A stretch of DNA of 26,346 nucleotides from Candidatus Micrarchaeota archaeon (GCA_043813365.1 JBDRLB010000059.1:1-26346), one strand, 5' to 3'; positions 1 through 17,661 are shown, counted from the first letter of the stretch. Notes: a model not told the origin generated them from the letters alone. Numbers and translations: made by a program.

Positions 1-12
1 ATACAGACAACC

Positions 13-54
13 TCGGCGGCGAAGCTACGGCCCCGTAAGGGGCCTCGCCGCCGA
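13..54. repeat. GC-rich nested hairpin with GTAA tetraloop
   Basis: TCGGCGGCGA(13-22)/TCGCCGCCGA(45-54) encloses GGCCCC-GTAA-GGGGCC (29-44) with a 6-nt bulge. Confidence 0.75.
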
Positions 55-88
55 ATCAATAACGCTCGCGCTGAAGAAAAAGAAATGT

Positions 89-128
89 GCTGATTCATCC
101 GTCGTTTGAAAGCGACGGATTTCTCAGC
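89..128. mobile_element. IS200/IS605(IS607)-like subterminal palindrome, possible element end or remnant
   Basis: GCTGA-TTC-ATCCGTCGTT-TGAA-AGCGACGGAT-TTC-TCAGC; resembles the TTCATCC...AAAG...TTC hairpins of this family; no transposase in the window. Confidence 0.45.
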
Positions 129-150
129 CTAAGGTATTAAACAATGAGAT

Positions 151-516
151 CTAATCCGAGTCAACTATCTTTTTCATCCTTGAGACGAATTCCTCGGCCT
201 TGAAGGGCTTCATGATGTAGTCGCACACCCCCTTGTTTTTCAACTCGCCAAAGCGCTCGTTGCTGATGGGTATGCCGCTTATGAACGCGAACTTTGCGGA
301 GTAGTTGCTTTTGCGGAGGGAATCGTAAATATCCCAGCCGGACATGTCGGGAAGCATGACATCCAATAGCACAAGATGGTATTGCTTTTCCTTAGCCTTG
401 CCCAGCCCCTCTTTCCCATCATTTGCAATATCCGTCTCGATGCCCGCATTCCCCAGTATGAGCCTGACTGCCTCGGCCGTATCCCGGCTGTCCTCAACGT
501 AAAGCACTTTTTTCAT
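151..516 (-). CDS. Single-domain response regulator (CheY-like receiver), 121 aa
   Basis: MKKVLYVED...LLDVMLPDMSG...ISG...KPF: acidic pocket, phospho-Asp, Ser and Lys all present; alternative ATG at 561. Confidence 0.93.
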   Translation of the reverse strand: MKKVLYVEDSRDTAEAVRLILGNAGIETDIANDGKEGLGKAKEKQYHLVLLDVMLPDMSGWDIYDSLRKSNYSAKFAFISGIPISNERFGELKNKGVCDYIMKPFKAEEFVSRMKKIVDSD

Positions 517-596
517 CCAGATGCCCTTTTTTCCAAGCTCAATTGCGTCAGGCGTACCCATACTTTCAGACCTTCTTTTGGATAGGGTAGAATTCG

Positions 597-680
597 TAAT
601 ATTTATAAATACAACCATAATAGGTGTATAAAGATATATAATTTTTATAAAAAGGATATAATAAATATAACGGAGGGCAT
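597..680. promoter_or_regulatory. Very AT-rich divergent promoter region between receiver and UbiA genes
   Basis: Several TATA-like boxes, perfect palindrome TTTTTATAAAAA (642-653), SD GGAGG (672-676) before ATG 683. Confidence 0.65.
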
Positions 681-682
681 AA

Positions 683-1639
683 ATGGCCAACGGCTCAGCA
701 AGCATGCGGAGTTGGTACGGCTCCAGAATTGTAGACAGCCTCGTATCCGAAGTGGATTTTACCTTTCCCTTCAGCAGGCAAGAATTCCATGCACCCTCAT
801 TGTACCAGGATTTCATGTCCTTGACCAAGATCAACAGGACCGGAACTGCGATAACATCGCTTATAGGGGGCATAGGATATGCCACGCAGTTTTCCGGCGA
901 TGCTTCTTTGCTCATGCTCCAAGGCGCGGTTTCGCTTGTTTTCGCATATGTGCCAATATCCATCCTGAATGATATCCTGGACGCGGATGCCGACAGGCTG
1001 AACGAATCTGAAAGGCCGATTGCAAGGGGTGCCCTTTCCCCCATTATGGCGATGGGGATGGCATCAATAGTATTATTCCTAGGGATGTTGGTAACCCTCG
1101 GGTTCGGCACGATGTTCGCTGCATTTTTCCTGGCAGAATTTGCCCTCGGCTTGATTTATTGCTTTTGGGCAAAGAGAATGGGCTCGTTTTCCTATGCGCT
1201 GCTTGGATTCACCCATATCGGATTCCCGTTCATAATGGGCGCATTGCTGGGCGGCGGTTTCTCCGAAAACACACTTCTGGTCGGGGCATACGTCTACCTG
1301 ACAATGTTCCTTTGTATTTCGATAAAGGATTTCAAGGACATCGAAGGCGACAAAAAAACCGGCGTGAGGACCTTCCCACTGATATTTGGCAAGGAAAGGG
1401 CATACCGGATCACAGCAACGGCATTCTTGTTCGCCCCGCTGACTTTCTTCATTCCCTGGATCGCAATGCACCTTTCTGCCGGATTTGTTGCGGCATATTC
1501 GGTTGTGTCCGCGTGGAAACTCAAGAATGCGAAGCTGATGCTAAAAACGCCATCCGCCGAACGTTCCAGGAAAATACTCGACCAGTTCCGCTTTGCGGTG
1601 ATGGGAGAAATGATTGCATGGGGTGTAGCGACAATATGA
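683..1639 (+). CDS. UbiA-family membrane prenyltransferase (DGGGP synthase-like)
   Basis: NDILDADADRLN..RPIARG and KDFKDIEGDKKTGVRTFP Asp-rich motifs, multiple TM helices. Confidence 0.93.
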   Translation: MANGSASMRSWYGSRIVDSLVSEVDFTFPFSRQEFHAPSLYQDFMSLTKINRTGTAITSLIGGIGYATQFSGDASLLMLQGAVSLVFAYVPISILNDILDADADRLNESERPIARGALSPIMAMGMASIVLFLGMLVTLGFGTMFAAFFLAEFALGLIYCFWAKRMGSFSYALLGFTHIGFPFIMGALLGGGFSENTLLVGAYVYLTMFLCISIKDFKDIEGDKKTGVRTFPLIFGKERAYRITATAFLFAPLTFFIPWIAMHLSAGFVAAYSVVSAWKLKNAKLMLKTPSAERSRKILDQFRFAVMGEMIAWGVATI

Positions 1640-1803
1640 GGAAGAATATGGGGCAGATGCAGATAATGGTCAGCCAAGTGCCGGAAAACGGCCATCATGG
1701 CACGAAGTCGGAAAATAAGCGGGGGGCCATTTACGTGCCAGCATACGGAACAAAGGCGGACAATTCCAATGCCAACGCGTTCCAGCTCAAATGGGAGGAT
1801 TGA
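1636..1803 (+). CDS. Putative 55-aa peptide ending ...NAFQLKWED; candidate ComX-like precursor
   Basis: ATGA start/stop overlap with the UbiA gene; MRKNMGQMQIMVSQVPENGHHGTKSENKRGAIYVPAYGTKADNSNANAFQLKWED; fills most of a ~280-bp gap. Confidence 0.45.
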   Translation: MRKNMGQMQIMVSQVPENGHHGTKSENKRGAIYVPAYGTKADNSNANAFQLKWED

Positions 1804-1920
1804 GCATTCCGGCGCGAGTGCCGATACAAATTGCACCGGCATTTTTGGGCTCGGCGGCTTGCTGCCAAATACGGGAAACTATTTAAGGCGCGTCCAGTTA
1901 TCCTTATCAGAGGGATTCTG

Positions 1921-2478
1921 ATGGGCCTAGATTCAGCGCGGAAGATGGTTTTCCTGAAGCAGATACGCGATGAAAACGGGATGCTCGTCGTGTTCGGGAA
2001 GCCCTGCTTCTTCATGCCCGCTAGGATGTTAATTGAAATCCAGGCCGAATTAAGTGCGTCGTTCGGGAAGGAAAAAGTGGGCAAAGCATTCTTCGAGGTG
2101 GGCAGGAGGAGGACGCACAAGGGCGCGCTTTTCTTTTCCGCCTTGAGGGGAGTCAACCGTGCATTTGAAACGCTGCACCTCGGCTCGCCCCTGCTTGAAC
2201 TCGGGGCATTGTCCCTAAGCTCAACAGGCTGGGGGGATTTTACCGTTATGAAATTGGGAAAAAACCGCATTATTGCAAAATGCCCAAACTCCCCCCTTGC
2301 TGCAGCCTATAGGAAGGAAATCGGCTTCTCAAAAGAACCAGTTTGCGGCATCCTTGCGGGAATGATTGCCGGTGCAGCTGAAGTTTGGCAGGGAGGCAGT
2401 TTCAGTGCAAAGGAAACCAGCTGCGCAGCCATGGGAAAAGCAAAGGAATGCGTATTCGAGGTTGTAAAAAAGGGATGA
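1921..2478 (+). CDS. V4R (4-vinyl reductase) domain ligand-binding protein
   Basis: TGWGDF..NSP..PVC..AGMIAG..ETSCAAMG..CVFEV V4R signature; TATA-like TATTTAAG at 1880-1887 supports ATG 1921. Confidence 0.9.
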   Translation: MGLDSARKMVFLKQIRDENGMLVVFGKPCFFMPARMLIEIQAELSASFGKEKVGKAFFEVGRRRTHKGALFFSALRGVNRAFETLHLGSPLLELGALSLSSTGWGDFTVMKLGKNRIIAKCPNSPLAAAYRKEIGFSKEPVCGILAGMIAGAAEVWQGGSFSAKETSCAAMGKAKECVFEVVKKG

Positions 2479-2509
2479 ATCCCCATTTCCAAGGGAATAA
2501 TACATTCCA

Positions 2510-3262
2510 TCAGGATGAATTCTTTACGACGATTCCCTTTCCTTTCTTGATGATGAACTCATGAACGCCGCCCTTATAGTCGCCGCCCCTCAGCTTCACT
2601 ACAGTAACGGTCCGCAGGACATTTTCCTCGCCGAGTATCTGCTGATCCAGAAGGATTATGCCATCGCAGATGAATTCGCTCACCGTATCGCGCGAATACC
2701 ATTCGGAATTCTTAGGCAGCTCGGAAATCAATATGGTGGTGCAGCCGAGCTTCCGGATTTCCTCAAGCATGTAATAGATCATCTGCTTCTTGATCCCATC
2801 ACCCATAGCAATCGGCGGCTGGTGGGTTGTTTTTTTAAGGAACTCAATCATGTCCTCCGGAAGGTTTCTGTAAGATGAGGCGTAAACAGTCATTATGGAA
2901 ACAGAATCGATAACAAGCCTTTTGGCGCCCAATTTCTTCACGTGCTCCTTCAAGTCGTCAAATGCGGCATACAGGTCGCTGGGGTCAAGTCGGATAATCT
3001 CCAATTTGCCATTGGCTGCAAGCTCCCTCACTCCGAGCCCCAGGCGTTCCGCCTGCTCCGTAAGGTAACCGGTACTGGATTCGAAAGTCGCGTATATGCC
3101 GGTTTCGCCCGCCCTCGCGGCTTCTGAAATGAATTGCATTGCCAAAAGCGTCTTGCCGGTCCCGGGTGTGCCGGACACAAGTATTTGGTCTCCTGCATGC
3201 ACGCCGTCCGGTATGATGGAATCAAGCGGCTTGAACCCGACGTTTTTCCTTTGGTGTTCCAT
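2510..3262 (-). CDS. KaiC/RAD55-family single-domain RecA-superfamily ATPase
   Basis: Walker A GTPGTGKT, Walker B LVIDS, DGII and VKLRG motifs; ATG at 3262. Confidence 0.93.
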   Translation of the reverse strand: MEHQRKNVGFKPLDSIIPDGVHAGDQILVSGTPGTGKTLLAMQFISEAARAGETGIYATFESSTGYLTEQAERLGLGVRELAANGKLEIIRLDPSDLYAAFDDLKEHVKKLGAKRLVIDSVSIMTVYASSYRNLPEDMIEFLKKTTHQPPIAMGDGIKKQMIYYMLEEIRKLGCTTILISELPKNSEWYSRDTVSEFICDGIILLDQQILGEENVLRTVTVVKLRGGDYKGGVHEFIIKKGKGIVVKNSS

Positions 3263-3367
3263 GGTAATCCCAGAAAGGTAATGGAGTAATTGCACTTTAT
3301 AATAATTACCCTTTACACTATAAGGTTTATAACTTATGCATATTATTTACTATCGTCGGGTGGGTAA

Positions 3368-3772
3368 ATGGACGAGCTTGATGAGAAAATCCTGAAATTC
3401 CTTAAGGAGGACGCGAGCATGCCCATGACGGACATTGCCAAAAAACTCAAAGTCCCAAAGCCTACTGTTTATGTCCGGCTCAACAAGCTGAAGAAAAGTG
3501 GCATCATAAAAAAATTCACCGTTCTCTTGTCATCTCCTTCCGATAAGATGAATACCGCAGTGATCGACTGCAAGGATTTCCTGATTTCAAAGATGACCTC
3601 CAGAACTTCCGGGAAAATAGTGAAGGAACTGAAGCTGAACACCAAGGTCGAGTTCATCGTGCGCATCTCGGATACGCAGCTTCTCGTAGGATGGAGGGGC
3701 GGGCTTGAACTCCCCCGGCTTCCCGGAGTGGAAAACATAACAGGCGCAGACACTTTATACTGGAAGGACTGA
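3368..3772 (+). CDS. Lrp/AsnC-family HTH transcriptional regulator with divergent C-terminal domain
   Basis: MDELDEKILKFLKEDASMPMTDIAKKL..PTVYVRLNKLKKSGIIKKF. Confidence 0.9.
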   Translation: MDELDEKILKFLKEDASMPMTDIAKKLKVPKPTVYVRLNKLKKSGIIKKFTVLLSSPSDKMNTAVIDCKDFLISKMTSRTSGKIVKELKLNTKVEFIVRISDTQLLVGWRGGLELPRLPGVENITGADTLYWKD

Positions 3773-3797
3773 TCCAGCCAGTCCCGCATATTCGAGG

Positions 3798-5141
3798 TTA
3801 AAAATAATCCGCTATTGATTTCTGGTCCGGTTGTTTTTTTCCGGAGTAAGGTTGTTTTGGATTGCCTTCCGCCCCGTTTATTTTTTTATTTTCTTCAAGC
3901 ACCATATTGGAAGGGAGCTGCAGCTCCCCATAATTGCCGTCGTAGCCTGCCTTCACAACCAGTTTACCTTCGCGGTTTGCAATGATCGCTGCCGCCAGTT
4001 TCTCATGCATCTCCTTCCTAAGTGTTGGTTCATCCGCTTCCAGCAGCAAATTGAACTCGCTTTTGAAAACGGACATCAGCCTCTCCGTTTCCGCATACAC
4101 TTTCCGGCTCATTGCTGGGGAAGAGAAGCAAGATGCGACAAGGTCCTGCAAAGGAAGAAGGGATTTGTAGGGGATTGCATCTTTTGGCTTAAATCCATCC
4201 TCCCTGTCCGCGAGCTCCTCAACACGGCTTAACACACCGATAGTGAGCTTGCCCTTGCATTTCGGGCAAATGCCCTTCAGCTTGAGGGTTTCCTTTGGAT
4301 TGCACGAGAAATTGCAGTTCCTATGGCCGTCATAATGATATTTGCCGTAATTCGGGTCGACTTCAACGGTGAATTTGAAATGCTTCCCGTCCTTTTGCTT
4401 GATTGCATTGATCAGATTTTCAAAATTCAACTCCCTCTCCTCAAACTCGAATGCATTGCATTCCCTCCCGATTCGGTAAGGATGCGGCGAATGGGAATCG
4501 GAATTAGATACAAGCGCATATTTATCTAGCTGCGAAAGCCTCCAGTTCATAATAGGATCGCTGCTCATGCCGGTTTCAAGCGCAAAAATGTGCTTCGCCT
4601 GTTCCTCGTAACCCTCCTCAATGGAATTGAATCCGCTATTCGAGCCGAAAATGGAAAACCAGGGGGTCCAGATGTGCGCAGGGATTATTTCGATTTCCTT
4701 GCTTACCTGCTTGCAGATCTCAACCAGCATTGCGGGGGAAGTGCTGCCGAAAATCGGCCTTCCATCGGATGCGAGCGCACCCATTTTGCTCAAACGGTCG
4801 TTCAGCTGCTCTACGATCTCGAAATCCGGTGCCAGCAGGACATGATGCACCTTCTTCACTCCCTTGGGAGTAGAGATGATTGTTGCAACCTCGTTTTGCA
4901 GAATGAAGTAGACTCCTTTTCTTGACGGATCCTTCAGTTCGAACAGCCCCTTTTTACATTCAGCTTCCTTCAATTTGTATTTCAGTTCCGCGAGCCATTT
5001 GGGATGGGAGAAATCGCCCGTTCCCAGAATTTGCAGCCCTTTCTTGCGGCCGCCCTCCTGCAGATGCTCGAGGTCCATCTGCGGCGAAACCGCCCTGCTG
5101 TATTTGGAGTGCAGATGCAAATCAGCGAAGAAAAGTGGCAT
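3798..5141 (-). CDS. endoQ: Endonuclease Q family (PHP domain + zinc finger)
   Basis: DLHLHSKYS, GTGDF, PAHIWTPWF, SNSDSHS, GKYHYDGHRNC..CPKC; C-terminal PIP-like QKSIADYF. Confidence 0.9.
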   Translation of the reverse strand: MPLFFADLHLHSKYSRAVSPQMDLEHLQEGGRKKGLQILGTGDFSHPKWLAELKYKLKEAECKKGLFELKDPSRKGVYFILQNEVATIISTPKGVKKVHHVLLAPDFEIVEQLNDRLSKMGALASDGRPIFGSTSPAMLVEICKQVSKEIEIIPAHIWTPWFSIFGSNSGFNSIEEGYEEQAKHIFALETGMSSDPIMNWRLSQLDKYALVSNSDSHSPHPYRIGRECNAFEFEERELNFENLINAIKQKDGKHFKFTVEVDPNYGKYHYDGHRNCNFSCNPKETLKLKGICPKCKGKLTIGVLSRVEELADREDGFKPKDAIPYKSLLPLQDLVASCFSSPAMSRKVYAETERLMSVFKSEFNLLLEADEPTLRKEMHEKLAAAIIANREGKLVVKAGYDGNYGELQLPSNMVLEENKKINGAEGNPKQPYSGKKQPDQKSIADYF

Positions 5142-5228
5142 GATTGAAAATAGGCGCTATAAGTTATAAATCCATGAATCTGCCAAAAAATCAGTGGGAA
5201 ATAAAAAAGAAAGGAAAAAAGAAAAAAA

Positions 5229-5516
5229 TCACGCGGAATCCTCAAGTTCCAGCTTGACGCCGCCGACCATGCCCGCGAAGATGTTGTAGATAAAGGCACC
5301 GATGAGACCGCTGATGAAACCTATAATTCCATAAATGATCGGCATAACGATTACTCCTGCAATGCCCAGGGCTGCCAATCCGCCTAGGCCACCCGCCATC
5401 CCTCCTACTACGGCTAGCATAAGGCCTGCGAATAAGCCCACAACAGCCATGATTACCCCGTATATCTTTCCCGCAGACATCGGATCCACTGTTTTCAGGA
5501 CTACCATCTTACCCAT
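5229..5516 (-). CDS. Small Gly-rich two-TM membrane protein (DUF3566-like)
   Basis: VDPMSAGK..two hydrophobic helices..IYN..GGVKLELE. Confidence 0.8.
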   Translation of the reverse strand: MGKMVVLKTVDPMSAGKIYGVIMAVVGLFAGLMLAVVGGMAGGLGGLAALGIAGVIVMPIIYGIIGFISGLIGAFIYNIFAGMVGGVKLELEDSA

Positions 5517-5586
5517 GAAACCACCTCAAAATGCTAAGGCTGGGGCGGTATAAAAAATAAGCAGTTGCCGATGATTGACTAAAAAA

Positions 5587-6726
5587 TTAGGGAAGGAAAT
5601 CCTTGTTCGCGATCTTCTCCGGCAGGTAAGTTTTGGAAATGTACTGCAGGTTCTTGCTGGAAAGCGCCTGGATTTCGGCCTTTATCTTTTTGTCAAGGAA
5701 CTTATCGATCTCCTTTTGCCATTCCTTCGGCTTGAACCAGTCGTACGCCTTCATTTCCTGCGCGCGCTTTATGTCCACTTCCTTCGCCTTGATCGTAACA
5801 GCCTTGAGGTCGTAGTGCTCGATGTCGGAGATGCTCATCCCTAAGAATTTCATTTCCTTGCACCCTAAACGGCCCGATTCATGTGCAAGCGCCATGCTGC
5901 CGTATTTCATCGTGGAGTAAATGTACCATCCGTAAGGGTCGGCATCCGTAAGGCAGTAGATTGGAATTTTCAGCTCTTCCGATAAGCGCTGCAGCAGCCT
6001 TCTCGCGCCCCTTGCGGCCTGGCCTGCTGTTGTCATCAGCAAACACTTGTTCTTCTTCCAGTATTCGTCCTCATTCAACCTGTCAAATATTGCGTTTTTC
6101 TCCGCAACAAGCACATAATCTAGATCGTGATCGATGAATTCGATCTGCTCCACAATGGAAGGGATCGCAAGCCCGCCGGATCCCAGCTTTGCAAGGTCGA
6201 TTATGCTCTCCCGATCACGCACGAAATCCTTGATCCTCATGGTGCCGGCCATCCTTCCTTTCGGCTCCGCCCTCAGGTGGAGCATTTCACGGAAAGTATC
6301 AAGAGCCACCTCGAAATCCACAATTGCAAGGTCGGACTCCTTCTGCTCATCAATCGTATCTTCCCTTGTGCCATGGATCGTTCTCTTCTTCGCGTAGTAA
6401 AGGTCACGAAGCGTTGCAGTCAGATTGTTTTCCAGCAAATCCTTCTTTACATAGCTCGCGACGAGCATCGTCTGCATGAACCTCCTTGCGTGGGAAACGT
6501 TGAAGAGGTACCGTTTTGCAACCTTGTCTCCCAAAACGATTTTCTTGTTCTTCTCGTCAAAGGCGACGTTGCTGCTTCCCCTTACAGGAATGTCGATGTG
6601 GGGATTCTCATTCTTGTCGATTTCATCAATCAGCCCGTCGGCGAATTTGCCGATGCGTTTCAGTATCTCCTCGCGGTTCTTCTCGCGCTTCGCCATCCCC
6701 CCAACGTCCTTTTTTTCCTCGGCCAT
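5587..6726 (-). CDS. top6A: DNA topoisomerase VI subunit A
   Basis: TLRDLYY catalytic Tyr, Toprim AEK and DADPYG, KAEIQAL; start taken at MAEEKK (6726). Confidence 0.97.
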   Translation of the reverse strand: MAEEKKDVGGMAKREKNREEILKRIGKFADGLIDEIDKNENPHIDIPVRGSSNVAFDEKNKKIVLGDKVAKRYLFNVSHARRFMQTMLVASYVKKDLLENNLTATLRDLYYAKKRTIHGTREDTIDEQKESDLAIVDFEVALDTFREMLHLRAEPKGRMAGTMRIKDFVRDRESIIDLAKLGSGGLAIPSIVEQIEFIDHDLDYVLVAEKNAIFDRLNEDEYWKKNKCLLMTTAGQAARGARRLLQRLSEELKIPIYCLTDADPYGWYIYSTMKYGSMALAHESGRLGCKEMKFLGMSISDIEHYDLKAVTIKAKEVDIKRAQEMKAYDWFKPKEWQKEIDKFLDKKIKAEIQALSSKNLQYISKTYLPEKIANKDFLP

Positions 6727-6751
6727 AATTGTCACCAGAAAATACTTGCCC

Positions 6752-8578
6752 CTAATCATCCTTTTCCTCTGCCTTCATGTCCTCATCGACATCGCCTATC
6801 TCCTCCAGCTCCTCCTCCTTCTCTGCAAGCTTTGTGCGCTCTTCGGCTATTTTCCGGAGCTTCTCCTGTATTTTTACCTTTTCAACTCCCTTGATGTCAT
6901 GAAGCGCTTCCGCAACCTCCCCTATGTAACGGAAGAATATCTGCCGCCTTCTTTCCTGGTCCTCGGCTTTCTGCATCGAATGCAGGTACATCGAAATTTC
7001 CCTCGCGGCCTCCATCAATGCGGACCTTATTTCCTCGATGATTTCCTCCTCCTGAGAGATCGCAAGCTTGCCCGTACCAGTATAGGGAACGTAAACGGAA
7101 ACGAAATTGATGAAAAGCGTTATGGGAAGCTCCTCCCATTTACGGAGGTCATAGCGGCCCCAGTCAATGCTCTTTACTGCCTCCATGGTTGCGCAGCTGC
7201 CTGCATCAAAAAGCAGCGGGACTGAATTTGCATACCGAACAACTTCCCCGACCCGGCGGATGCCTACCTTATTCTCCGTTCCTTTTGCCATTGCAGCTGA
7301 TGCCTCGCTCCCGGATTTCCCACCATACGCGATCGCGGCCTCAACCAGGAAGGGTATTCCTCCGCGGAAAACATGCGGTTTCCTCTCCGCGACCTTCATC
7401 ACATCGGGCTGCAATAAATTTTTCAGGCTTTTCTTGAGCTGCTCCTCCCCTATGGGTATCAGCACATCGGTTTCGGGCGCGATCCATTTCACTTTCTGGA
7501 ATGAGAGAACGATCTGCTCCGCTTCTGGCCATTGCAAAGTGGAGGGGGCGCGGTTGAAATCAACAGAAGGGCAAAGCGCCTGCAGTTCCTTGACCTTGTC
7601 GCCGCTTACCCTTGTGAATTCCTGCTGCAGGAAGGATGAAATTTTCCTGTTCTGCGAAACAAGCGCCAGATCCATGAGGTCGCTGGTTGAAATTCCAAGC
7701 GGATGCGGGAGGGAATCCTTCGCTTTGGGAGGGATTTTAGTGCTCGCTCTTGGGAAAACAACAATGTCCTTTGTAGGCTCTATCAAAGTTATCTGCACGT
7801 GCGGATTTGCGAGTGCGGTTCTCCGCAAATACTCGTAAACGGAATATTCGGACCTATTGTAACCGACCTCGGAGAATTCCGCCTCGACCCGCAAGCCGCG
7901 GTAATTTCCGCTGTATTCCTTCTCATTGGCGATGATAGGGGAGTTCTTTTTCACATCAATTGAAACTTCGCACTCGTAAATTTTGTAATTTCCGATGCTC
8001 GTCTTCACTTTGGTGGGCTTGCCGGTGGTGATTTGCGCAAAAAGCGTGGCGCCCTTCGCACCGATCCCCTGCTGCCCCCTCCTCTGCCTCCTTTGGTGGA
8101 ACTTCGTGCCGGAAAGCAGTTCTCCGAGCGCATTGCCCACCTTGGATTTGGGGATGCCGGTGCCGTTATCCTCTACAATGACCTTGAGGTGATCATTTAC
8201 CTCCTGGATTTCAACTTTGATGTCGGGAAGGATTTTTGCATCCTCAGCGGCATCAATGGAATTCGTCACATATTCGTGGATGATTGTTGTAAGCGATCTC
8301 ACTTTGCCCGCATAGCCCAGCATCTGCCGGTTCTTCTTGAAAAACTCCGCAACGGAATATTCCTTGTACTCCTTTGCGAGCTGGTGTTCCAGATCCTCTG
8401 CGGATGGCTCTGAAGTTTTTGACGGCGGTGCAACTTTGGATGGAGCCCCTGAAGCCGCGCCTCCCTTTTCAGCTGGTTTCGCTTGCTCAAGGGGCTTATC
8501 CCTCTCATTCCTGTTGCCTATGAGTTTTGCCGCATTCCTCGCCATTTCGCGTGGATCGGGCTTTTTCAGATCTGCCAT
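6752..8578 (-). CDS. top6B: DNA topoisomerase VI subunit B
   Basis: GHKL motifs HEYVTNSIDA, EDNGTGI, RGQQGIG; transducer RYAN.VPL; ~70-aa low-complexity N-terminal extension. Confidence 0.97.
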   Translation of the reverse strand: MADLKKPDPREMARNAAKLIGNRNERDKPLEQAKPAEKGGAASGAPSKVAPPSKTSEPSAEDLEHQLAKEYKEYSVAEFFKKNRQMLGYAGKVRSLTTIIHEYVTNSIDAAEDAKILPDIKVEIQEVNDHLKVIVEDNGTGIPKSKVGNALGELLSGTKFHQRRQRRGQQGIGAKGATLFAQITTGKPTKVKTSIGNYKIYECEVSIDVKKNSPIIANEKEYSGNYRGLRVEAEFSEVGYNRSEYSVYEYLRRTALANPHVQITLIEPTKDIVVFPRASTKIPPKAKDSLPHPLGISTSDLMDLALVSQNRKISSFLQQEFTRVSGDKVKELQALCPSVDFNRAPSTLQWPEAEQIVLSFQKVKWIAPETDVLIPIGEEQLKKSLKNLLQPDVMKVAERKPHVFRGGIPFLVEAAIAYGGKSGSEASAAMAKGTENKVGIRRVGEVVRYANSVPLLFDAGSCATMEAVKSIDWGRYDLRKWEELPITLFINFVSVYVPYTGTGKLAISQEEEIIEEIRSALMEAAREISMYLHSMQKAEDQERRRQIFFRYIGEVAEALHDIKGVEKVKIQEKLRKIAEERTKLAEKEEELEEIGDVDEDMKAEEKDD

Positions 8579-8602
8579 AAAAAACACCAAAAAAATTTTC
8601 CA

Positions 8603-17496: not shown

Positions 17497-17586
17497 GGCG
17501 ATCAATCTGGGGATGATTTGGGCATATTATAAGCGGGAGTGCGATTTATATTGATATTGAATCAAAAAATAATCCCTCCTTTTATT

Positions 17587-17660
17587 GGGCTCGTAGCTCA
17601 GCTTGGCAGAGCGTTCGGCTCTTAACCGAAATGTCAAGGGTTCAAATCCCTTCGAGCCCG
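17587..17660 (+). tRNA. tRNA-Lys(CUU), intronless
   Basis: GGGCTCG/CGAGCCC acceptor, TTCGG-CTCTTAA-CCGAA anticodon arm, AAGGG-TTCAAAT-CCCTT T arm. Confidence 0.97.
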
Positions 17661-17661
17661 T

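Follow-up and report, generated by a model that had tools for sequence, protein, structure and literature searches.

Why should an enzyme of lipid chemistry be encoded in the midst of signaling and regulatory genes in an archaeon? This question is raised by a 26,346-nt stretch of DNA from a small, uncultured Candidatus Micrarchaeota archaeon (henceforth the window), in which positions 151–3772 hold genes for a receiver (REC), a UbiA-family prenyltransferase, a V4R protein, a KaiC-like ATPase and an Lrp/AsnC-type helix-turn-helix (HTH) regulator, all of them open in the ORF list and in the sequence (table 1). A preliminary description of the locus had named these five genes and arranged them as two divergent pairs; all five are indeed present with Pfam scores above the curated cut-offs, and their identities are established.

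Gene content of the block

The REC and ubiA genes diverge across an AT-rich spacer, as do the genes for the KaiC-like and Lrp-like proteins, and the V4R and KaiC-like genes converge with a stop-to-stop distance of 31 bp. The contig ends 150 bp past REC, which is where the window starts. Full-length alignment to orthologs from the same genus backs the starts of UbiA, V4R, KaiC and Lrp; for V4R, a TTG at 1831 was rejected as the start in favor of 1921, which the ortholog alignment supports.

Table 1. Features of the block, with positions counted from the first nucleotide of the window
Feature	Position	Strand	Basis
REC, stand-alone CheY-like receiver, 121 aa	151–516	-	PF00072
Spacer REC/ubiA, AT-rich, presumed promoters	517–682		sequence
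UbiA-family intramembrane prenyltransferase, 318 aa	683–1639	+	PF01040
55-aa ORF ("peptide"), doubtful gene	1636–1803	+	ORF only
Stand-alone V4R ligand-sensor protein, 185 aa	1921–2478	+	PF02830
Single-domain KaiC-like RecA-superfamily ATPase, 250 aa	2510–3262	-	PF06745
Spacer kaiC-like/lrp-like, presumed promoters/operator	3263–3367		sequence
Lrp/AsnC-type HTH regulator, divergent C-terminal domain, 134 aa	3368–3772	+	HTH_AsnC-type

TATA-like runs occur in both spacers. The REC/ubiA spacer additionally contains small palindromes (635–660) and a pair of arms (595–606 and 661–672), and no repeats were found in the AT-rich spacer between the KaiC-like and Lrp-like genes. No operator-like motif was found to be shared between the two divergent spacers, which have only one 8-mer in common, or across orthologous spacers, and an Rfam scan of positions 1–4000 gave no match. 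The 55-aa ORF, which the preliminary description had counted as a member of the block, begins in an ATGA overlap with the UbiA stop. A Pfam search at E ≤ 1 gave nothing for it, and tblastn gave no match to it within the corresponding block of a second genome of the genus (G005), where the gap between UbiA and V4R is only 96 bp; these searches suggest that it is probably not a conserved gene.

Properties of the encoded proteins

The prenyltransferase scores 111.7 bits against PF01040 (gathering score 34.2), and its best solved relative is the DGGGP synthase of M. jannaschii (6m31, E value 4e-18), followed by chlorophyll synthase. It shares with the former the two Asp-rich motifs (N/D-x3-D-x3-D and D-x2-D-x3-D), here NDILDADAD at residues 96–104 and DFKDIEGD at residues 216–223, and N96, D100, D104, D216, D219 and D223 are invariant across 12 block orthologs. 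In contrast to the DGGGP synthase, however, it remains far below the NCBIfam equivalog cut-offs, none of which is reached (74–110 bits vs. 269–353), and a housekeeping DGGGP synthase was rejected as its identity (PRK12882, 74.3 vs. 296; PRK12883, 66.3 vs. 353). It was likewise rejected as a member of a conserved 16-member clade in the UbiA tree (96% SH-aLRT support); this clade, which is probably housekeeping, holds another UbiA of the same genome, encoded on contig C27, whose best scores are on DGGGP-synthase-like NCBIfam models. None of the 16 V4R-adjacent UbiAs falls inside that clade; they have long branches and form several divergent clades, and the V4R-adjacency label changes 4 times on the tree as opposed to 12 times when it is shuffled, a count to which not one of 500 shuffles came down. 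The enzyme is absent at E ≤ 1e-8 from four of five genomes of the same genus. It is an accessory paralog from the DGGGP-synthase/chlorophyll-synthase branch, in a genome that also encodes a polyprenyl synthase and a GGGP synthase.

The V4R protein matches PF02830 with 39.1–39.4 bits (cut-off 31) and has no XylR_N match in Pfam. Its predicted fold (AF2 model, pLDDT 85.5) has the phenol-sensor domains of MopR, PoxR and DmpR as top Foldseek matches (∼187–191 columns, TM ∼0.73, E value ∼1e-9), and the match spans the whole sensor domain; weaker matches include the palmitate-binding Bet3/TRAPP subunits. C142, E165 and C168 align to MopR residues 155, 178 and 181. E165, C168 and C177 are invariant in 13 homologs, and the six most distant ones have another residue, mostly Asp, in place of C142. 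We take these Cys/Glu/Cys/Cys positions to be a metal (Zn) site as in MopR.

The KaiC-like ATPase scores 152.4 bits against PF06745 (cut-off 26.6). Its match is split in two stretches because of a subfamily insert around residues 128–165 (SYRNLPED...). The nucleotide-binding motifs are established: the protein has both a Walker A (GTPGTGKT) and a Walker B motif (D119), and G31, G34, G36, K37 and D119 are invariant in 22 homologs. In the tree of this family, the protein groups with orthologs from two other genomes (G005 and G016) and from metagenomes in a clade of 13 rows (SH-aLRT support 100%). PDB matches include KaiC (8zn5, E value 4.9e-39) and, over the full length, the single-domain protein PH0284 (2dr3, 4e-15). 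A circadian KaiC was considered and rejected, as the protein has one domain, not two in tandem, and 250 aa and scores 71.8 vs. 546 for TIGR02655 (circ_KaiC) and 112 vs. 408 for PRK09302. The Lrp-like protein has an N-terminal HTH_AsnC-type domain (PF13404, 46.4 bits, cut-off 27), and a C-terminal RAM domain (AsnC_trans_reg) was not detected in Pfam at E ≤ 1. Its AF2 model (pLDDT 77) matches archaeal Lrp/AsnC proteins over the full length in Foldseek, the best being 2ia0 (6.5e-9), but with a TM of only ∼0.4, and the predicted fold after the HTH is strand-helix-strand-strand-strand, without a second helix.

The receiver consists of a REC domain only, which covers the whole protein (PF00072, 67.8 bits, cut-off 30.2). 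The acidic pair E8-D9, D52, S80 and K103, read from the translation, are presumably the phospho-acceptor Asp and its partners by analogy with CheY. The preliminary description had noted that there is no histidine kinase, which holds for the window: its single HATPase_c match (8033–8305) lies inside a 612-aa ORF adjoining Top6A, which we infer to be topoisomerase VI B. It does not hold for the genome, which is 88.6% complete and in which we found one histidine kinase (PAS-HisKA-HATPase_c) on contig C22. This kinase gene is followed by a REC gene whose product is 58% identical to the REC of the window, and these two are the only REC matches in the genome.

Conservation of the block

The preliminary description had made its reading depend on synteny in relatives, and such synteny is clearly present. 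The second genome of the genus that carries the block (G005) has all five genes in the same order and orientation, with identities of 52% for REC, 53% for UbiA, 67% for V4R, 61% for KaiC and 49% for Lrp; there the block lies elsewhere on the chromosome, flanked by eIF2-gamma and unknown ORFs. Metagenome contigs and other families of the class also keep the arrangement in which UbiA and V4R are read toward KaiC and Lrp is read away from it. Among ten metagenome contigs with KaiC orthologs of 53–58% identity, nine have a V4R-family gene, seven have Lrp divergent from KaiC, and four have UbiA in the expected place, and all those that lack UbiA end before its position. We then surveyed 401 sampled genomes of the phylum and collected the neighbors within 1.5 kb on either side of the best 30 V4R loci, in counts based on home-made HMMs that were trained partly on the same loci, with Pfam confirmation of neighboring KaiC, UbiA and V4R in a scanned subset. 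KaiC is present in 25 of these loci, KaiC together with UbiA in 19, a divergent Lrp in 13 and all of these in 10, and five loci have neither KaiC nor UbiA nearby. At one related locus (L090), Lrp is absent upstream of KaiC though 1.07 kb of sequence is present there. Of 30 UbiA loci from the order, 11 have a neighbor of the V4R family and 8 have KaiC within 1.5 kb. Conservation of the block is thus established, and the clustering of these genes is far beyond chance. We found no description of this module in the literature.

In at least five families of the order, the KaiC/V4R/UbiA triad occurs with shuffled order and orientation, and V4R is then always in the middle, co-transcribed with KaiC, UbiA or both. 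Tandem V4R arrays also occur, as do KaiC-V4R pairs without UbiA (L079, L080 and L107), revealing that the sensor-ATPase pair is not in every case tied to prenyl chemistry. Two of six genomes of the genus have the block, and 77 of the 401 sampled genomes of the phylum have a V4R of this type; the distribution is patchy and the block therefore dispensable.

On its ubiA side, the block repeatedly has a two-component gene: REC in this genome and, at the same position, in G005, and a histidine kinase in at least eight related loci (L087, L088, L095, L128, L129, L131, L132 and L133). Of the 30 V4R loci, only two have REC in the block. Seven of these eight kinases are mutually homologous over most of their length, and no TM-like stretch was seen in any of the eight; they are predicted to be soluble, and they occupy the slot that REC has here. 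The synteny and the recurrence of a two-component gene on the ubiA side support the view that these genes are one signaling or regulatory unit around a lipid-type enzyme. To this extent the preliminary description is supported.

A candidate circuit and its alternatives

The closest parallels come from the NtrC-type activators XylR, DmpR, MopR and PoxR (5kbe, 5frw, 6iy8), which likewise combine a V4R-containing sensor with an ATPase and an HTH. In the window, by contrast, these functions are split over three proteins, with the 185-aa V4R protein as sensor only; the ATPase is KaiC-like and of the RecA superfamily rather than a sigma-54 AAA+ ATPase, and the HTH is of the Lrp/AsnC type rather than the Fis type. 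To our knowledge, Archaea have no sigma-54. The ATPase also resembles the archaeal single-domain KaiC-like ATPases, of which PH0284 (2dr3), SSO2452 (2w0m) and PH0186 (2zts) are solved examples: both Walker motifs lie in one domain of ∼250 aa, and the gene adjoins sensor, two-component and HTH genes. Unlike these, the subfamily of the window has the insert and is fixed beside V4R and a prenyltransferase. Makarova, Galperin and Koonin reportedly proposed in mBio in 2017 that archaeal single-domain KaiC-like ATPases are signal-transduction hubs. In Cyanobacteria, the SasA/CikA kinases and the RpaA regulator carry the output of KaiC. There, too, a DNA-binding output and either a histidine kinase or a receiver are coupled with a KaiC-family ATPase, but the protein of the window is single-domain and the output is Lrp-type, not OmpR-type.

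On these grounds we tentatively favor a circuit of separate sensor, ATPase and HTH proteins, with two-component signaling as a further input, that would sense and control the product or substrate of the prenyltransferase. V4R, co-transcribed with UbiA, is in stand-alone form the domain with which MopR, PoxR and DmpR sense small molecules, and it would bind a hydrophobic or aromatic compound of the UbiA reaction, most likely the prenylated product and otherwise the acceptor substrate. Its ligand state would be passed to the convergently encoded ATPase, which, jointly with the Lrp/AsnC-like protein encoded divergently from it, would control transcription at both divergent promoter regions. A specialized isoprenoid compound would in this way be governed by a loop of feedback or induction. 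REC would be a second input, probably phosphorylated by the only histidine kinase of the genome. The physical interactions, ligand, DNA targets and direction of control in this scheme are what we infer, and UbiA as the maker of the ligand and UbiA as a mere regulated target would both fit the sequence data.

Alternatively, the block might be a biosynthetic or handling module in which V4R is a carrier or chaperone that holds a greasy acceptor or product for the membrane-embedded UbiA, the ATPase aids loading, release or assembly, a membrane lipid or cofactor is tailored, and Lrp and REC merely control expression. In the main clade, translation of V4R is coupled to that of UbiA, with overlapping genes in ten loci (L087, L088, L095 and L127–L133), V4R-family and UbiA genes are paired without an adjacent KaiC elsewhere (e.g., on contig C1 of this genome and in G002), and single loci add a geranylgeranyl-reductase-family protein (L071; TIGR02032, 214 bits vs. 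158.8), an O-methyltransferase (L072) or a cis-prenyltransferase (L080). A parallel is found in the bchJ-bchG(-bchP) genes of purple bacteria, where the V4R protein BchJ belongs to a pathway ending in the UbiA-family protein BchG and the geranylgeranyl reductase BchP, with bchJ presumably adjoining bchG in Rhodobacter; the UbiA-V4R-reductase order of L071 is similar, whereas the window is without tetrapyrrole context and without the reductase and has ATPase, HTH and two-component genes instead. A passage of a review (PMC7242693) relates that inactivation of bchJ leads to excretion of divinyl-protochlorophyllide and suggests that BchJ acts as a chaperone in bacteriochlorophyll synthesis. The Bet3/TRAPP matches of V4R also agree with handling, but the structures that V4R matches best are ligand-sensing domains of regulators and not carriers, and the KaiC-V4R pairs without any UbiA count against such a module. 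The block has two-component genes and a DNA-binding regulator as fixed parts, which fits signaling better than simple substrate handling. We also know of no role for a RecA-type ATPase in prenyl transfer, and we consider the handling module rather unlikely.

The fold that V4R shares with the phenol sensors MopR and DmpR, the KaiC-V4R pairs without UbiA and the tandem arrays might also be read as sensing of an unrelated environmental aromatic by V4R, KaiC and Lrp, with the prenyltransferase as one of several targets or a mere neighbor. This is improbable given that UbiA lies beside V4R in 19 of the 30 best V4R loci despite the shuffling of gene order across families, and that V4R-linked UbiAs form their own lineages. 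We consider similarly improbable the sensing of cell density or host contact through a released isoprenoid signal, with UbiA as synthase, V4R as receptor and KaiC, REC and Lrp as transducers. It would account for the adjacency and co-transcription of synthase-like and receptor-like genes, the long branches and divergent clades of V4R-linked UbiAs, the patchy, accessory distribution and the fixed signaling genes. However, we found no gene for export, secretion or signal processing either in the block or in the conserved flanks examined, nothing suggests that the product of UbiA is released, no counterpart of the peptide was found in G005, and intracellular feedback fits the same data equally well.

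Because the same gene block recurs in many relatives, the block appears to be a real and so far uncharacterized control circuit, one that would act on an isoprenoid compound. Should UbiA and V4R, against the odds as we see them, be the synthase and receptor of an archaeal isoprenoid signal by analogy with the logic of LuxI/LuxR, read through the KaiC-like ATPase, two-component proteins and the Lrp-type regulator, no system of cell-cell or host sensing would have been described before it from the DPANN archaea, and the divergent lineages of V4R-linked UbiAs would be different signal "dialects".

Gene content and conservation of the block

The genome containing the window (G000; 1.34 Mb in 78 contigs, 88.6% complete) carries at the start of contig C59 five clear genes within positions 151–3772, all with Pfam scores above the curated cut-offs, that encode a stand-alone CheY-like receiver (REC), a UbiA-family prenyltransferase, a stand-alone V4R protein, a KaiC-like ATPase, and an Lrp-like regulator. 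REC and UbiA, as well as KaiC and Lrp, are divergent pairs, each across an AT-rich spacer, and the V4R and KaiC genes are convergent. The "peptide" gene counted in the preliminary description is doubtful, having neither a family match nor a counterpart in the closest relative. The block is not a compositional island, its GC content of 0.48–0.51 being that of the remaining window.

Coordinates of the block genes and of related features elsewhere (L-numbers, loci or stretches from G000, related genomes, or metagenome contigs)
Feature	Sequence	Coordinates	Strand	Remark
REC	window	151-516	-	Response_reg, 67.8 bits (Pfam)
UbiA	window	683-1639	+	111.7 bits (Pfam)
55-aa ORF	window	1636-1803		doubtful; overlaps UbiA stop
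V4R	window	1921-2478	+	39.1 bits (Pfam)
KaiC-like ATPase	window	2510-3262	-	152.4 bits (Pfam)
Lrp-like (AsnC-type HTH) protein	window	3368-3772	+	46.4 bits (Pfam)
Kinase	L004 (G000, C22)	1477-3315	-	
REC	L004	1118-1480	-	
DUF7504/DUF835 protein	L004	580-1062	-	
V4R-related and UbiA pair	L003 (G000, C1)	827-1693, 1686-2795	-	
DUF7504 protein	L072 (G026)	7368-7904		
DUF7504 protein	L082 (G017)	4891-5433		
Citryl-CoA-lyase-like site	L087	9182-10899		
Citryl-CoA-lyase-like site	L088	4854-6879		
Citryl-CoA-lyase-like site	L095	2168-2911		
Citryl-CoA-lyase-like site	L128	9203-11165		
Citryl-CoA-lyase-like site	L129	9163-9918		
Citryl-CoA-lyase-like site	L131	9068-9877		
V4R-type array	G377:C4	1836-7228		
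V4R-type array	G163:C1	959528-962758		
V4R-type array	G279:C33	5702-7923		

The grouping of these genes proposed in the preliminary description stands, as a neighborhood comparison across Micrarchaeota found the order of the block kept in relatives. Among five other genomes of the same genus, only G005 encodes V4R and KaiC orthologs, and there all five genes have the order and orientation seen in the window (identities of 52% for REC, 53% for UbiA, 67% for V4R, 61% for KaiC, and 49% for Lrp) at a different chromosomal site, after eIF2-gamma; a contig scan of the genomes with alignment A2 returned this locus alone. Scanning metagenomes with a KaiC alignment identified ten contigs with orthologs (53–58% identity). 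Lrp is divergent from KaiC in seven of the ten, a V4R-family gene follows KaiC in nine (the longer, ~370-aa V4R-related type in L089 and L094), and UbiA comes next in four, all contigs without UbiA stopping short of its position. Only L090 is a genuine exception, as no Lrp lies within the 1.07 kb available upstream of its KaiC gene. A metagenome scan with a single V4R protein as the query found no relative.

V4R profile matches are present in 77 of the 401 genomes of the phylum sample, a tally that takes in two unpublished genomes (G240 and G093) used for no further claim. Within 1.5 kb on each side of the 30 best V4R loci of this sample, which include the window and several loci clipped by contig ends, KaiC is found at 25, KaiC and UbiA at 19, Lrp at 13, all three at ten, and neither KaiC nor UbiA at five, as counted with HMMs that were built partly from the same loci and for families that are Pfam-confirmed only in the scanned subsets. 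At the order level and starting from UbiA, a V4R-family neighbor occurs at 11 of 30 UbiA loci and KaiC within 1.5 kb at eight. Because these genomes of 0.4–1.6 Mb each have one to 15 KaiC-family matches, such a gene would by our estimate lie within 1.5 kb by chance in a few percent of cases, and the neighbor counts from metagenome contigs and phylum loci rule out chance clustering of the block genes. Families f19 and f24 show the same block in eight longer stretches, and other families have shuffled triads (KaiC>V4R> <UbiA in G050 and G028, UbiA> <V4R<KaiC in G029, and KaiC>V4R370>UbiA in G017 and G026), in all of which V4R is the middle gene. The four-gene block keeps its order across several Micrarchaeota families; it is real, conserved, and uncharacterized.

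The key paper on KaiC-like hubs is reportedly that of Makarova et al. 2017 (mBio). In the full-text literature we found no description of an association between archaeal KaiC and UbiA prenyltransferases, which the neighborhood tables of Makarova et al. could list. The available part of PMC5847659, which mentions KaiC-like proteins, archaea, and V4R, does not describe the block neighborhood, work mentioning V4R, prenyltransferases, and archaea appears irrelevant by its title and the opening of its abstract, and the main text of PMC12892359, as far as available, mentions neither KaiC nor UbiA nor two-component systems. Within the searchable literature, the block is therefore undescribed.

The UbiA and V4R proteins

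The best solved relative of the window UbiA is the DGGGP synthase of M. jannaschii, followed by chlorophyll synthase, and the Asp-rich motifs are invariant across 12 block UbiA orthologs. That it is the housekeeping DGGGP synthase is excluded by the equivalog scores, a paralog, and the tree: it reaches no NCBIfam equivalog cut-off; among three UbiA paralogs in G000 the copy on contig C27 scores best on DGGGP-synthase-like models; and the C27 copy belongs to a 16-member clade (96% SH-aLRT) from seven families in which no member has a V4R neighbor, all 16 V4R-adjacent UbiAs lying outside it on long branches. V4R adjacency requires four changes on the UbiA tree versus 12 when shuffled, with none of 500 shuffles as low. 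Given its position outside the C27 clade, the window UbiA is an accessory paralog. G000 also encodes a polyprenyl synthase and a GGGP synthase, and mevalonate and ether-lipid genes are encoded by Micrarchaeota orders, according to the available part of PMC12892359.

A second V4R-related and UbiA pair is encoded on contig C1, where a 369-aa protein that matches no Pfam or NCBIfam model overlaps the start of another UbiA paralog. This ~370-aa family sits between KaiC and UbiA in G026, G017, and G028 and adjoins KaiC in G038, L089, and L094. At L071 (G058:C33, 2791–6516), a UbiA–V4R pair lies between two geranylgeranyl-reductase-family (GGR) genes, one of which scores 214 bits on TIGR02032, and KaiC is convergent; bchJ/bchG/bchP make up the same V4R/UbiA/GGR trio. 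In related families, a gene for a citryl-CoA-lyase-like protein (~250–270 aa, citrate-synthase C-terminal domain) directly precedes ubiA on its strand, often beside a class IV aminotransferase-like gene and often with a dihydrolipoamide-dehydrogenase-like gene close by; none of the three adjoins the block in the window.

The AF2 model of V4R (pLDDT 85.5) resembles over its full length the phenol-sensor domains of MopR, PoxR, and DmpR (TM about 0.73, E about 1e-9), with weaker matches to MJ1460, Bet3/TRAPP, and H-NOX. Its residues C142, E165, and C168 align with MopR 155, 178, and 181, and E165, C168, and C177 are invariant among 13 homologs. Complex prediction for KaiC and V4R (alignments A5 and A4) gave no answer (score 0.00 vs. 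a mark of 0.32). Some genomes of the class have tandem arrays of four to eight V4R-type genes.

The ATPase, the regulator, and two-component genes

The KaiC-like ATPase has a single domain with intact Walker A and B motifs and a subfamily insert (SYRNLPED...), falls within a 13-row clade with 100% support, and matches KaiC and the single-domain archaeal proteins PH0284, SSO2452, and PH0186 in the PDB. On the KaiC tree, V4R adjacency does not fall into one clade and requires 11 changes versus a shuffled mean of ~15, a scatter that arises partly because 1.5-kb flanks hide neighbors; we therefore limit the claim of one V4R-linked lineage among KaiC proteins to the 13-row clade. The Lrp-like protein has a clear AsnC-type HTH and no Pfam match to a RAM domain in its C-terminal half, and its model aligns over the full length with archaeal Lrp/AsnC structures.

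The spacers at 517–682 and 3263–3367 have no common repeat beyond one 8-mer, and orthologous spacers reveal no obvious conserved operator-like motif. Scans for promoters and terminators did not rise above background, Rfam gave no match over 1–4000 at E≤0.1, and the sole tRNA of the window (17586–17661) is distant from the block. A sequencing-run search returned four DNA runs with small shares (0.05–0.20) and no RNA run among the matches listed. At the contig end, just downstream of the REC stop, positions 1–150 contain two GC-rich hairpin-forming inverted repeats (~14–53 and ~96–121), the one nearer the stop (~96–121) being followed by a T-rich run on the REC strand; this nearer repeat could be a terminator-like element or have broken the assembly. 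On the other side, 3798–8590 encodes a TIGR00375-family protein (197 bits, short of the 326.6 cut-off), a Gly-rich, DUF3566-like membrane protein of 95 aa, and the A subunit and presumed B subunit of topoisomerase VI; metagenome contig L086 has Top6A (73% identity) ~6 kb from the Lrp gene.

As the preliminary description had it, the window encodes no histidine kinase, its sole HATPase_c match being an ORF adjoining Top6A that we infer to be Top6B. A search of the whole genome did find a single HisKA–HATPase_c kinase, on contig C22. This PAS-rich protein (three PAS domains, HisKA, HATPase_c) is followed by the second of the two receivers in G000, 58% identical to the window REC, and then by a DUF7504/DUF835 protein; DUF7504 proteins are also encoded near KaiC–V4R–UbiA loci in G026 and G017. 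On the side of ubiA, the block is flanked by a histidine kinase gene in L087, L088, L095, L128, L129, L132, and L133, and in L131 by genes for two PAS kinases, one REC, and one CHASE4 kinase; L127 and L130 have no kinase on this side. Seven ubiA-side kinases are mutually homologous along most of their length, the L095 kinase matches one of the others only and at its C-terminal end only, the short ones have no TM-like stretch, and tblastn with these kinases found no match in G000. From the kinases and receivers on the ubiA side, the block has a recurrent fifth member in the form of a two-component gene, which encodes a REC in the genus of G000 and a kinase in other relatives.

A candidate split circuit and its alternatives

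In bacterial MopR, DmpR, and XylR, a single polypeptide carries the V4R sensor together with an ATPase and an HTH; in the block, the same three functions fall to separate adjoining genes of other families, beside a prenyltransferase. Because these separate genes are fixed beside a prenyltransferase, we read the block, with slightly less than even confidence, as a split sensor–ATPase–HTH circuit around UbiA, the interactions of which we infer throughout. The ligand of V4R would be the product of UbiA, with which it is co-transcribed, or failing that the UbiA substrate; V4R would in turn control the state of the KaiC-like ATPase; transcriptional output would pass through the Lrp-like protein; and a second signal would enter through REC, or through the kinase in relatives.

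A lipid-tailoring module in which V4R serves UbiA as a BchJ-like carrier is a possible but rather unlikely reading, supported by the overlap of UbiA and V4R genes, by the GGR, methyltransferase, and cis-prenyltransferase neighbors at other loci, and by the chaperone role suggested for BchJ in the available part of PMC7242693. The released isoprenoid signal proposed in the preliminary description seems to us quite improbable, and we are similarly doubtful that V4R senses an unrelated aromatic compound.

To our knowledge, almost nothing is known about archaeal control of isoprenoid and membrane-lipid chemistry or about the roles of most KaiC-like ATPases and stand-alone V4R proteins. As a split circuit, the block offers a concrete and testable candidate with one each of an enzyme, a candidate ligand sensor, an ATPase, a DNA-binding protein, and a phospho-relay input, and because it is conserved across Micrarchaeota, recombinant proteins allow its dissection although these archaea are uncultured. 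The block also suggests that archaea rebuilt the sensor–ATPase–HTH logic of bacterial regulators of the XylR/DmpR type from separate, nonhomologous parts.
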